A stretch of 64,000 bases of DNA, taken from IMG/VR virus record IMGVR_UViG_3300036792_000198, positions 1-64,000 of that record; one strand, 5' to 3'. The DNA is from a virus. Below are positions 17,145 through 19,361 of the stretch, one piece after another. The stretch's first letter is position 1; each line of letters starts with the position of its first letter. A program made the position numbers and the translations under genes. The notes under the pieces are model-generated. The model saw only the letters and a program-made list of their open reading frames with translations, was not told where the DNA came from and did not search any database.

Positions 17145-19361
17145 ATGACCGAAACCCTCAGCGCCCAGCTGGAGCTGGGCTGGCGCTACAACCCGCTGGA
17201 GCGCCGCAACGCGCACGGCGAGTGGTCCCGCCTCGGTGCTGACGCAGACAAGGTGCTGTCGGGTATGTCGTGGTCAGACAAGGGAAGCCCGTACAAGGCA
17301 CCGCCCGTCGACCGGGTCAACAAGCTGGGCGGGAAGGCGTCCGATAACCCGTTCATCAGGAAGTACGGGCTGTCCGCGAAGAACATCGTGTCCGCCTACG
17401 ACGCGTCCACCCCGGATGAGCGGGACCAGGGCGCACGCTGGTACAGCGACGCCCACGACGTCGCCCAGAAGCTCGGCGGCGGCGACGCCGACAAGGGCGC
17501 CGCGATGATGTCCGCGTTCAGCGTGCAAACCGACTGGGCCACCGACGTCATGAACTCGGCGCACACCCTGGCGAACGGGCAGGTACCGGAGCACGGCGTC
17601 GGCATCACCGGCTCAGTCCGGGACCGGGCGCAGAAGATCCTCGCGGCCAAGTCGACCGCCGACATCGAGAAGCTTTTCCCGGAGGCGGGCTCGTCGAAGA
17701 CCCGGTCGTTCTACCACCTGATCCGCAACGGCGGCGACACCCCCGGCGACCAGGCCGGGGAGGTCGTCATCGACCGGCACGCGCTGAGCGTCGCCGCCGG
17801 CCGCCGGCTCACCTCCGCCGAGACGGAGGCCCCGTCGTACGCGGACATCAAGGAAGCCCATCCTGACTGGAGTGACGAGCAGGCGAAGGCGTACAAGGCG
17901 ACGTTCCCCGCCGACCCGACCGGCGCGGTGAGCACCTACCAGCACATCGCCGACATGTACCGGCAGGCCGCCAAGACCGTCAGCGACCGCGACGGGATCC
18001 AGGTCTCCCCGCACCAGATGCAGGCGATCACCTGGATGCACCAGCTGAACTCCAACGACGCCGACGACTCGCACCTGGTGGAACTCGGCGCCGAGGCCGC
18101 CCGGTCCGGCGGGAAGTTCGGCTCCGTGCCCGGCGCTGCGACAGCTAAGGGCCGCGCGTCGTCCATGCAGAAGCGGTGGGCGGCGTGGGCGGCGTACGCG
18201 CGGGCCCACCACGTTCCGGTGCAGGCTGGCACGACCGCGATGGCCATGGTCACGGAAACGATCACCGGGCAGCTCCTCCATCTGGCCAGCTATGAAGGAC
18301 GCCACATCGCCGGCACGCCGTACACGTTCCGGCACGGCTGGATCCTGCTCAACCCGCGTGCAGGCCAGGCTGTCTCCCATCCCACGATGGGCACGGGCAA
18401 GGTGACTGGCGTATCAAACGGCACGGCCAGCGTCGATTTCGGGAACGGCCAGAGAGCCAGCTTCGCCACCGAGAACCCGGACAACCCCGAAGTCAACTTC
18501 GATGACAGCCCGCGCGGGTTTAAGCACGTCAACGACGTGCAGGTGACCGGCCCGGGTATCACTGACGACGAGGAAAACTCACTGTTCGACTACATATCGC
18601 CGGAGGGATCCGAGGCGATCAACGGAGCGCTGCGGAGCGGTATTCCGCTGCCGAAAGGCAACGGCAAGATCAGGGACATGAAGACGGGACAGGCGACCAA
18701 CCCGCTTGCCGGCCTTTTCGGTGGAGGCCCGAAGCCGGGCCCGGTACCGGACAGGAACCAGGAGATCAAGCAGCTAGACCAGTTGATCAGCGAGAACACG
18801 CTGACCTCAGATGCTCACGTGTTCAGGGGCCTGGCGATGACTCCCGCCCTGGCCGATCAGCTCAAGCCGGGGACGGTATTCACCGACAAAGGGTTCACGT
18901 CAACCAGCGACAGCATGGACTGGGCGCAGAAATTCGCCGGGCTGCGCTCGGGCGCGGCTGAGGATGACATGGCATCCGTTAAGCCAGTCAGCGGAGGCAG
19001 GCCGGTGGTCATGCATATCACCGTTCCCGCTGGACAGCACGCGGTTCAGGGTGAGCCGGGTATCGGGGAGTACATCCTGCCCCGTGGCGGCCAGTACCGG
19101 GTGGACTCGATCAGCCCGGACGGCTCGACGTACAACCTGACGATGACGGGCACCGCGCACGACAGTGATATTGCCTCCGGCGCTGATGCCCAGGGTGTCT
19201 TGTCGCAGGTGTCGCCTAGCAACGCTGTGGCCAGCGTCCAGAAGCTGACAGCGCTGGGCATGTCACCGAAAGACGCGGCTAACACGGTGATAGCGCAGCT
19301 CAGCAAGGCCAAGGGAAGCATCGACTCTGCTCTCCAGAAGGTGAAATCTGGTGCCGGGTAA
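17145..19361 (+). CDS. large head-module protein B with C-terminal ADP-ribosyltransferase (R-S-E type) domain
   Basis: The start lies 1 nt after the stop of A. The ART signature reads FDYISPEGSEAINGALRSG, then Arg in HVFRG (18825..18827), Ser-Thr-Ser in GFTSTSD (18900..18908) and Glu in GIGEYILPRG (19068..19070). The domain region has visibly lower GC3. Confidence 0.85.
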   Translation: MTETLSAQLELGWRYNPLERRNAHGEWSRLGADADKVLSGMSWSDKGSPYKAPPVDRVNKLGGKASDNPFIRKYGLSAKNIVSAYDASTPDERDQGARWYSDAHDVAQKLGGGDADKGAAMMSAFSVQTDWATDVMNSAHTLANGQVPEHGVGITGSVRDRAQKILAAKSTADIEKLFPEAGSSKTRSFYHLIRNGGDTPGDQAGEVVIDRHALSVAAGRRLTSAETEAPSYADIKEAHPDWSDEQAKAYKATFPADPTGAVSTYQHIADMYRQAAKTVSDRDGIQVSPHQMQAITWMHQLNSNDADDSHLVELGAEAARSGGKFGSVPGAATAKGRASSMQKRWAAWAAYARAHHVPVQAGTTAMAMVTETITGQLLHLASYEGRHIAGTPYTFRHGWILLNPRAGQAVSHPTMGTGKVTGVSNGTASVDFGNGQRASFATENPDNPEVNFDDSPRGFKHVNDVQVTGPGITDDEENSLFDYISPEGSEAINGALRSGIPLPKGNGKIRDMKTGQATNPLAGLFGGGPKPGPVPDRNQEIKQLDQLISENTLTSDAHVFRGLAMTPALADQLKPGTVFTDKGFTSTSDSMDWAQKFAGLRSGAAEDDMASVKPVSGGRPVVMHITVPAGQHAVQGEPGIGEYILPRGGQYRVDSISPDGSTYNLTMTGTAHDSDIASGADAQGVLSQVSPSNAVASVQKLTALGMSPKDAANTVIAQLSKAKGSIDSALQKVKSGAG

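Follow-up and report, generated by a model that had tools for sequence, protein, structure and literature searches.

An R-S-E ADP-ribosyltransferase module on a DUF7178 carrier in the head-gene block of a high-GC tailed phage

Locus and module organization

The first 64,000 nucleotides (nt) of the viral record IMGVR_UViG_3300036792_000198, referred to here as the window, contain a plus-strand open reading frame (ORF) at 17145..19361 that codes for a protein of 738 amino acids (aa). The protein joins two modules, a carrier of the family DUF7178 and an ADP-ribosyltransferase (ART) effector, and an identical protein (P0001) is encoded on a 125,950-bp JGI metagenome contig. The guanine-plus-cytosine (GC) content of the window is 69.7%, and codon third positions are strongly biased, as in a high-GC organism. 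An earlier inspection of the DNA without database searches, the sequence-only reading, had placed a toxin-like ART domain of the R-S-E type at the C-terminal end of this protein and had suggested that it was a recently acquired, exchangeable cassette. In this study, we examine the ART domain, the carrier to which it is joined, the motif that separates them, and the genes that surround them.

The protein begins with a short motif, termed the box (MTETLSAQLELGWRYNPLERRNAHGEWSRLG; 17145..17234), that is recognized by a hidden Markov model (HMM) of the box (E 2.7e-13) and is disordered in the AlphaFold2 (AF2) model, where the predicted local distance difference test (pLDDT) score is below 50. The all-alpha DUF7178 carrier follows at residues ~50-365 (17292..18239; Pfam PF23802, E 3e-29; third-position GC, or GC3, 0.93). 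A second copy of the box (TETITGQLLHLASYEGRHIAGTPYTFRHGWILL; 18240..18353) forms the left border of the ART cassette; it is found by the same HMM, DNA homology with related loci ends at 18243-18245, and the change-point in GC3 falls at codon 356. Beyond this border lie a small beta-rich adaptor subdomain delimited by alignment (HPTMGTGKVTGV...VDFGNGQRASF; 18354..18554), the ART catalytic domain at residues 471-668 (18555..19148; Pfam PF03496, profile matches to the PDB, and Foldseek), and a 70-aa tail (19149..19358) whose GC3 of 0.73 is the lowest in the gene. In alignments, the adaptor subdomain accompanies the ART in stand-alone homologs, and it has a weak match to FlgD_tudor that falls under the cut-off (E 0.007). 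The ART module is made up, then, of an upstream adaptor of ~100 aa (box plus beta-rich subdomain), the ART domain, and the tail. Permissive Pfam scans gave nothing above cut-off for the adaptor subdomain, the tail, or pieces of the following 1129-aa ORF, and the tail has no homolog among the 179 proteins collected. The domain that had been called C-terminal is present, but it does not occupy the extreme C-terminus, since the tail follows it.

The gene is translationally coupled to its upstream neighbor through the sequence TGA-A-ATG at 17141-17147 (upstream stop TGA at 17141-17143), and the 1129-aa ORF opens with a GTG at 19351, which produces an 11-nt overlap (19351-19361). No excess of promoter- or terminator-like sites was found around the coupled genes of the head block, and no slippery sequence was evident that would join the 738-aa and 1129-aa ORFs (+1 frame, 11-nt overlap) by programmed frameshifting. 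Antisense ORFs under the ART region at 18590-18799, 18857-19021, and 19046-19321 were set aside as high-GC artifacts, because their frame composition only mirrors that of the plus-strand gene.

Identity of the ADP-ribosyltransferase domain

Judged by sequence and modeled fold, residues 471-668 are an intact R-S-E ART domain of the C3/VIP2/Alt superfamily, with predicted activity. The Pfam family ADPrib_exo_Tox (PF03496) covers residues 472-658 with 31.4 bits, above the curated gathering score of 23.4 (E 1.5e-7), and PHROG 3895, 'ADP-ribosyltransferase exoenzyme toxin', is matched at E 3e-4. The motifs and coordinates given by the sequence-only reading all proved exact. The segment FDYISPEGSEAINGALRSG corresponds to residues 481-499 (nt 18585-18641) and holds the N-terminal helix motif Y483-x8-I492-N493-x2-L496-R497 (18591..18635), in which the D, Y, G, A, I, N, L, R, and G columns of the alignment are invariant. 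The catalytic arginine of the [FY]RG motif is R561 (in HVFRGL; 18825..18827), the STS motif is S586-T587-S588 (in KGFTSTSD; 18900..18908), and the segment of the ADP-ribosylating turn-turn (ARTT) loop is E637-P-G-I640-G-E642 (19053..19070), with E642 as the catalytic glutamate (19068-19070, in GIGEYILPRG).

A database search with the C-terminal 333 residues returned seven stand-alone ARTs of ~230-410 aa at 37-51% identity. Ten sequences aligned with MAFFT share, without exception, the Y..IN..LR helix, [FY]RG, STS, and the E[YW]hhPRG segment, and the catalytic Arg, Ser, and Glu are retained in 10/10 close homologs. Conservation of these three residues is nearly complete in the wider family. When 1.84 billion cluster representatives were searched exhaustively with a profile, 3522 relatives were found at E<=1e-3 and 520 at E<=1e-10; among the 348 domain hits within the best 150 proteins, the arginine is present in 321/327, the first serine in 314/330, and the glutamate in 235/236 non-gap cells.

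Comparison with solved structures led to the same assignment. The domain profile matches PDB sequences of SpvB, C3stau, Vis, C3larvin, C3bot, Tre1, and VIP2 with E values of 1.5e-5 to 5e-3, and those of VsdC, CdtA, and Certhrax as well; E642 aligns to the second E of C3stau QQE. The AF2 model of the ART has a mean pLDDT of 63.9, with core blocks at roughly 55-92, mostly 70-90, and a poorly predicted stretch over its first 68 residues. Foldseek matched this C3-like model to C3bot1, C3larvin, Vis, Certhrax, iota Ia, and VIP2, each with probability 1.0 and E ~1e-7 (C3bot1 8.5e-8).

The residue two positions before the catalytic glutamate

In R-S-E toxins, the first Q/E of the [Q/E]-x-E motif sets the acceptor residue, such that ExE enzymes modify Arg and QxE enzymes, such as C3, modify Asn. 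Loss of the acid at this position, E-2, abolishes transfer to Arg in the classical toxins. The present ART departs from the canonical motif, with I640 in place of a polar or acidic residue, as the sequence-only reading had noticed. This substitution is shared by relatives. Position E-2 is I, L, or V in 19/19 domains whose identity to the window ART across the catalytic core reaches 45% or more, and in 49/77 domains of the 35-45% identity bin; ExE is commonest in the 25-35% bin, where it occurs in 69/116 domains. An acidic residue at E-5 (E637 here) is usual in close relatives without being invariant, being Ala in P0034. In these alignments, the I/L/V-x-E ARTs form a coherent subclade, unlike the canonical ExE and QxE enzymes. 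Given the hydrophobic E-2 residue, the acceptor residue cannot be deduced from the motif. The subclade, often with a displaced E-5 acid, may have a target chemistry distinct from that of both the Arg-directed (ExE) and the Asn-directed (QxE) enzymes.

The carrier and the modules joined to it

The AF2 model of the carrier (residues ~50-365) is all-alpha and well determined, with a mean pLDDT of 82.3 and a core above 90. Invariant motifs of the module include RWY.D (residues 98-102), VVIDRHALSVAAG (residues 207-219, nt 17763-17801), and QAITW/QA.TW (residues 293-297, nt 18021-18035). Clustering of these invariant residues suggests an active or binding site. No structural analogue was found among 350,542 PDB chains (best E 0.8, TM-score <0.2), a search of PDB sequences gave nothing at E<=1, and a term search of the literature returned no mention of DUF7178. 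In BFVD, the carrier matches proteins of Streptomyces phage Tefunt (E 2.6e-9), Synechococcus phage S-CBP42, and mycobacteriophage Myrna, together with long uncultured-phage proteins that bear the names 'ART-PolyVal-like', 'Large polyvalent protein associated domain', N-acetyltransferase, helicase, SleB, and RelA/SpoT.

The suggestion that the ART is an exchangeable cassette was borne out when the C-termini of homologs were compared. A full-length database search returned 28 homologs, all with Pfam DUF7178. Carriers that are 70-73% identical over residues 8-365 diverge wholly beyond that point and continue into other domains. P0003-P0011 align with the window protein by BLASTP only over an N-terminal block that starts at residues 3-26 and ends at 344-400, mostly 364-380, at 54-72% identity; past this block, they differ in length and content. 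The alternative C-terminal domains include a PI3_PI4-kinase-like domain (P0007) and an Abhydrolase_8/Tle3-like, i.e. lipase-like, domain (P0011), and in P0012 the ART module is instead N-terminal to DUF7178, with an Arr-like stretch after it. The same border is apparent in DNA: window positions 17158-18245 and 17168-18243 are each 74% identical to related loci (L007 and L001, respectively), and both alignments end at 18243-18245. The ART core at 18820-19142 aligns at 71% to a stand-alone ART gene of another related contig (L004).

Module-wise BLASTP gave different best matches for the two parts of the protein. For the carrier these are P0002-P0007, at 70-73% identity; for the ART they are P0037 (56%), P0039 (55%), and P0030 (54%). 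The ART of P0002, although it sits on an equally similar carrier, is absent from the 14 best ART matches. The similarities of the two modules are therefore incongruent. Stand-alone ART ORFs fill the same genomic slot in related loci, and among the eight top representatives scanned with Pfam the ART is fused to MuF (P0044, P0050), the portal (P0047), DUF7178 (P0041), a PI3/PI4-kinase-like domain (P0039), or NUDIX and lipase-like domains (P0053). The sequences thus show the ART to be an exchangeable unit attached to a conserved carrier. Residues ~800-1113 of the next window ORF correspond to the C-terminal modules of P0002-P0011, from which it follows that a single polypeptide of the relatives is split here into proteins of 738 and 1129 aa.

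A separate arrangement was observed on contig L004, which encodes ARTs of 692 aa and 304 aa and then a separate PI3/PI4-kinase-like protein (3443-5521, 8617-9531, and 9528-10895). These effector domains are the ones fused to DUF7178 in other relatives.

Third-position GC

The sequence-only reading had also noted a lower GC3 in the ART part than in the rest of the gene. The drop was confirmed: from 0.931 over codons 1-375, GC3 falls to 0.793 over codons 376-738 (Fisher p=5e-8), with the maximum-likelihood change-point at codon 356. Across 18 other genes of the window, values down to that of the ART segment (0.80) occur in only 3.7% of 198-codon windows. The limits first given to the low-GC3 region did not hold, as it begins ~350 nt further upstream, at ~18210-18245, and enters the first ~200 codons of the 1129-aa ORF, to end at ~nt 19962. 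By module, GC3 is 0.932 in the DUF7178 carrier, 0.796 in the ART module, 0.779 in the N-terminal Arr-like module of the next ORF, and 0.897 in the module after that. These values define a low-GC3 tract (0.78-0.80; 18210..19962), delimited by box motifs, that comprises the ART module and the Arr-like module and is wider on both sides than the interval originally described. The ART module of L001 has a GC3 of 0.976, equal to that of its own carrier, and the stand-alone ART of L004 has 0.921; low GC3 is therefore not intrinsic to ART modules. Recent acquisition from a source of lower GC3 would be the simplest reading of the step.

The lowest GC3 windows among the genes examined (0.66-0.80) lie elsewhere, in an ORF called at 29248-30339. 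This is either a wrong call or frame, or another compositionally foreign segment.

The box motif

The box is a motif of ~30 aa with a consensus of about TIS.QL[ED]L[AS]W..AW..E.RG..GEW and a variant, QL.LAS..G.HI.GT.YT[FY]RHGW. It became apparent from the resemblance between the N-terminus of the 738-aa protein (MTETLSAQLELGWRYNPLERRNAHGEWSR) and the carrier/ART junction (TETITGQLLHLASYEGRHIAGTPYTFRHGWILL), both of which resemble the N-termini of stand-alone ARTs (MTATISAQLDLASADDHHIAGTPYTYRHGWVL). An HMM built from nine instances, with one iteration, located boxes in the window at 17136-17234, 18240-18353, 19444-19545, 19963-20060, and 22920-23030, plus a weak copy at ~21391-21435. In related loci it located boxes at 7302, 8435, 9509, and 10511 (L001), at 7609, 9992, and 10814 (L002), at 6324, 8608, and 9612 (L004), and at 7832, 8867, and 9692 (L005); copies in these four loci on which the model had not been trained scored E 1e-6 to 1e-17. 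Every copy is on the coding strand, within the large ORFs that separate MuF from the capsid gene, and marks either the start of an ORF or a module border inside one. A single match on the minus strand (E 4.6e-4) is likely false. At least one box is present in 44/179 collected proteins, within the first 25 residues in 26, and a protein can have up to five, mostly ~200-500 aa apart.

At the DNA level, the boxes are the strongest direct repeats in 17000-24000: the stretches at 18297-18349 and 22974-23026 agree at 89% over 53 nt, and those at 17155-17178 and 22939-22962 at 88% over 24 nt. The motif did not come up in term searches of the paper that describes polyvalent proteins (PMC5512222), and two box-containing peptides gave no credible tblastn match to cultured phages. 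We infer that the box may serve in the protein as a signal for capsid targeting or processing, and that in the DNA it would be a recombination joint for the shuffling of modules. The N-terminal box of the 738-aa protein, which falls in a disordered region, is accordingly a candidate targeting or cleavage signal.

Downstream reading frames

The 1129-aa ORF (19351..22740, plus strand), the second half of the split polyvalent protein, contains a third box from ~19444, an Arr-like ART, a fourth box from ~19963, helical repeats, and a C-terminal module. The Arr-like domain, of the rifampin ADP-ribosyltransferase type and unrelated to the first ART, spans residues ~67-136 (19549-19758), where the motifs KFYHASPH, GDLITPG, and VYEVEPTGPIATD align to FYHGT, GDLLTTG, and IYIVEPTGPFEDD of Arr. 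Its Pfam Arr-ms score of 21.0 bits is under the cut-off of 25, its match to PDB ARR-2 has an E value of 0.62, and a separate weak Arr-ms match occurs at the equivalent position in P0012. This module is low in GC3 (0.78), like the ART module. It is a matter of speculation whether a phage-delivered Arr-like enzyme might act on a small molecule in an actinobacterial setting.

Three HExxH motifs are also found in the 1129-aa ORF (20878-20892, 21139-21153, and 22048-22062). HELAH and HELTH belong to a duplicated helical unit, and HEMIH (22048-22062) belongs to the C-terminal module that is fused to DUF7178 in relatives. A SprT-like match in this ORF is under the cut-off (E 0.047-0.077). The HExxH modules could represent a zincin-like processing peptidase.

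The ORF called from 22383 probably starts at ATG 22917, right at a box motif, and would then code for 306 aa (22917-23837). Its C-terminus is hydrophobic from ~nt 23691 (LVMYNLFSSAGLAVAMGGLAAGL...), resembling a membrane segment. The 306-aa ORF is 35% identical to the C-terminal half of P0037. Since the N-terminal half of P0037 is the window ART's nearest relative, these two modules occur elsewhere as a fusion.

Genomic context and host

The 738-aa gene lies in a head-morphogenesis block. On the plus strand, the window encodes a Mu-type portal (9100..10500; Pfam Portal_Mu, E 9e-27), a separate MuF-like head protein of 226 aa (13253..13933; Pfam Phage_Mu_F, 35.7 bits against a cut-off of 29.6), an 819-aa ORF, the 738-aa protein, the 1129-aa ORF, several further ORFs, and, at the end of the block, the major head protein (27654..28565; Pfam PF25209; PHROG 1650, E 1e-67). 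The order of terminase, portal, MuF, large ORFs, DUF7178 protein or stand-alone ART, and capsid recurs in related loci (L001, L002, L005, and L007). Between the ART gene and the major head gene, ORFs of 482 aa and 415 aa (24290-26989) are candidates for the protease and scaffold. An NCBIfam scan of six head-block proteins gave no match. Upstream of the portal gene, on the minus strand, is a gene for a C-5 cytosine DNA methyltransferase (6552-7961; Pfam DNA_methylase, E 4e-32).

Phages of Gordonia, Mycobacterium, Corynebacterium, Arthrobacter, and Streptomyces have major head proteins ~35% identical to that of the window, and distant DUF7178 homologs occur in Streptomyces and Kitasatospora genomes. 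On these grounds, the source is probably a high-GC tailed phage of an actinobacterial host. Against 50,697 phage records, megablast of the gene gave no match and tblastn of the whole protein gave only a 26%-identical N-terminal match, to a gene of Microbacterium phage Cece annotated 'glycosylase'; tblastn of the ART domain at E<=1 gave only marginal matches, to a 'minor capsid component' of an uncultured phage (E 9e-6) and haloviruses (halovirus ART, E 0.07). The 66 window ORFs, which cover half of the contig, contain no integrase, and a temperate lifestyle is therefore unproven; nor do they contain a macro, ARH, or DraG-type domain at Pfam E<=1e-3.

Discussion

We propose, with a probability of roughly 0.6, that the 738-aa protein is a late-expressed ART effector on a DUF7178 carrier that is packaged in the capsid and co-injected with the DNA, that its ART was acquired as a box-delimited cassette, and that the protein is one half of a split polyvalent protein. 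The protein would be produced late, alongside the portal, MuF, scaffold, and capsid proteins, and would be taken into the procapsid. There it might be cleaved at the box-marked module borders by a prohead protease or by the zincin-like domain of the neighboring ORF. Upon ejection with the DNA into the next host cell, the ART would use NAD+ to ADP-ribosylate a host target for takeover or counter-defense, as T4 Alt does. The ART and the adjacent Arr-like module would have been gained comparatively recently by recombination at conserved box sequences, and such an event is our proposed cause of both the sharp homology breakpoint and the lower GC3. The sequence data establish the identity of the domain, its intact catalytic residues, its place among the head genes, the exchange of modules, and the GC3 step; packaging, processing, injection, enzymatic activity, and target belong to the proposed part.

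Several observations weigh against this proposal. The GC3 difference can also come from relaxed codon selection instead of recent transfer. With Ile at E-2, the activity or target of the ART may differ, or the enzyme may be an NAD+ glycohydrolase only. The structure model of the ART is moderate (pLDDT 63.9), and its TM-score to C3 is 0.36-0.43, a low value that we attribute to the poor prediction of the 68 N-terminal residues of the model. The metallopeptidase assignment in the neighboring ORF depends on HExxH motifs and a SprT-like match below threshold (E 0.047). In addition, the phage has no close cultured relative by megablast or tblastn among the 50,697 records.

Two other roles for an active ART were considered, and both appear unlikely. 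The first is that of an interbacterial, anti-competitor polymorphic toxin of the MuF-toxin type, where the ART kills or inhibits non-immune bacteria and a cognate immunity protein protects the producer. A conserved N-terminal part joined to a variable C-terminal toxin-type domain is what such a toxin would look like, ARTs make up 14% of MuF toxins with EFV as a MuF-ART toxin (PMC5576092), and the PDB relatives SpvB, C3, Vis, and Tre1 are bona fide toxins. The gene neighborhood argues otherwise. No ORF of less than 150 aa lies downstream, the next ORF being the overlapping one of 1129 aa, and the 66 window ORFs lack both the macro, ARH, or DraG-type domains and, within this half of the contig, an integrase. 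Moreover, the N-terminal domain is DUF7178, with no MuF match in the 738-aa protein, and MuF is a separate gene. We rank this possibility below the injected effector because no immunity-type gene is found among the 66 window ORFs. Since none follows the ART gene, the term 'toxin' of the sequence-only reading is probably better replaced by that of a capsid-delivered, host-modifying effector.

The second role, which we also regard as improbable, is that of a non-packaged ART that acts late inside the producing cell, like T4 ModA/ModB, where it might modify proteins of the host or the phage during assembly or act in superinfection exclusion. Co-expression with the late genes would suit this role, and T4 itself has ARTs outside the capsid (PMC5512222). 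What favors packaging is the company the protein keeps: the same ART subclade is covalently joined to portal and MuF in relatives, in five independent loci the gene is placed after MuF and ahead of the scaffold/capsid genes, and the N-terminal box tag is common to all cargo-like modules. A catalytically dead ART-like domain with a structural or binding role, such as an internal head protein or decoy, would fit the missing canonical Q/E at E-2 and the moderate AF2 confidence, but is very improbable because the catalytic residues are conserved, with R, S-T-S, E, Y..IN..LR, and LPRG invariant across homologs of 37-56% identity, R/S/E nearly invariant in the 348 family domains, as expected from purifying selection on an active site, and the hydrophobic E-2 residue itself a conserved feature of the clade.

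An extension of the injected-effector proposal, which we offer tentatively and consider much less likely than the proposal itself, is that the locus belongs to an undescribed modular capsid-cargo system in which each effector module is box-tagged for targeting or processing, or both, and for recombination by which modules are exchanged, joined, or separated, combined with I/L/V-x-E ARTs of different target chemistry. Its cargo modules may include the ART, the Arr-like ART, and kinase-like, lipase-like, DUF7178, and membrane-type modules. If the box does prove to tag proteins for packaging or processing, it could offer a means of filling actinophage capsids with chosen cargo, and it would explain the mosaic origin of these proteins.

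Head-packaged effectors act before any phage gene is expressed, and few have been characterized (T4 Alt, P1 Dar, and N4 vRNAP). The present locus offers a clean natural case of effector-module exchange on a conserved carrier, with a sharp, motif-marked breakpoint and a compositional scar. It also brings to light an uncharacterized hydrophobic-x-E ART subclade that is tied to portal, MuF, and DUF7178 carriers, and a carrier fold without a solved analogue. Candidate targets in actinobacteria are RNA polymerase and defense systems, and the target would be informative on phage-host conflict in antibiotic producers.

Comparison with known systems

T4 Alt is packaged in the head, injected with the DNA, and modifies host proteins such as RNA polymerase alpha (PMC5512222, PMC9503650). 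More generally, ARTs of the Alt/VIP2 family in phages frequently form fusions with MuF or have genes adjacent to the head genes, and packaging in the head with subsequent injection has been proposed for them (PMC9503650). Like Alt, the present protein has an R-S-E ART and comes from a tailed phage, and its proposed packaging and injection are modeled on Alt. Alt enters the head through an N-terminal targeting/cleavage sequence, to which the N-terminal box of the 738-aa protein is a candidate counterpart. It differs in that there is no BLAST-level similarity, with no T4-like match at E<=1 by tblastn of the ART domain against the 50,697 phage records; remote homology to Alt/ModA/ModB through the shared superfamily remains. 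The Alt enzymes are Arg-directed, whereas the present ART has Ile at E-2. The T4 alt gene adjoins baseplate genes, and Alt does not belong to a multi-module protein.

The MuF polymorphic toxins, among them the ART toxin EFV of an Enterococcus faecalis V583 prophage (Jamet et al. 2017, PMC5576092), are similar in being head-module proteins with a conserved, virion-associated N-terminal part and a polymorphic C-terminal domain, frequently an ART, for which delivery with the DNA has been proposed; some relatives of the present ART subclade are themselves MuF fusions (P0044, P0050). Here, in contrast, the carrier is DUF7178, MuF is a separate 226-aa gene, no small immunity ORF lies downstream, and the host clade is of high-GC actinobacterial type rather than Firmicutes. 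The ART module is also internal, followed by a tail here and by further modules in relatives.

Bacterial R-S-E toxins are the best structural and sequence matches (C3, C3larvin, Vis, Certhrax, VIP2, and iota Ia; Foldseek E ~1e-7, probability 1.0; HMM E 1e-5 to 1e-3). They share Y..IN..LR, [FY]RG, STS, and E-x-[LI]-LPRG with the present ART, and the LPRG after its catalytic Glu is closest to that of C3. Identity is only 15-21%, however, and the C3 family has QxE (Asn) and the binary toxins ExE (Arg), whereas the present ART has I-G-E. These toxins are secreted exotoxins that act on eukaryotic cells, unlike a protein encoded in a phage structural module.

A further parallel in architecture is the polyvalent protein of phages and conjugative elements, as described by Iyer et al. 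2017 (PMC5512222). Such proteins are large and multi-domain, are encoded with virion genes or, in conjugative elements, with the conjugation apparatus, and combine ART or kinase, HExxH peptidase-like, and uncharacterized domains in shuffled orders. Domain order also varies among the present protein and its relatives (DUF7178 with ART here, ART-DUF7178-Arr-like in P0012, DUF7178 with kinase-like in P0007, and DUF7178 with lipase-like in P0011). The zincin-like metallopeptidase (MPTase) hub domain of polyvalent proteins may have a counterpart in the adjacent 1129-aa ORF, with its three HExxH motifs and its SprT-like match under the cut-off. As in four related loci, the gene in the window has portal/MuF on one side and the major head gene on the other, the structural neighbors of DUF7178 are annotated as polyvalent-protein domains, and a Streptomyces homolog (P0029) is annotated as ParB-family. 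The ARTs of polyvalent proteins described in 2017 were of the H-Y-D type (Tox-ART-HYD2/ART-PolyVal), and at that time none of the R-S-E type had been observed in a genuine polyvalent protein (PMC5512222). The present case differs in having an R-S-E ART as a module and an Arr-like ART in the next ORF, and in being split into 738 and 1129 aa; an R-S-E ART in this architecture extends the polyvalent-protein picture modestly. Phage head-associated ART effectors on virion-linked carriers are already known, and the present protein is a new and divergent example of them. Greater originality lies in the ART subclade with hydrophobic-x-E, in the DUF7178 carrier, a structural orphan, and in the box at every module boundary.

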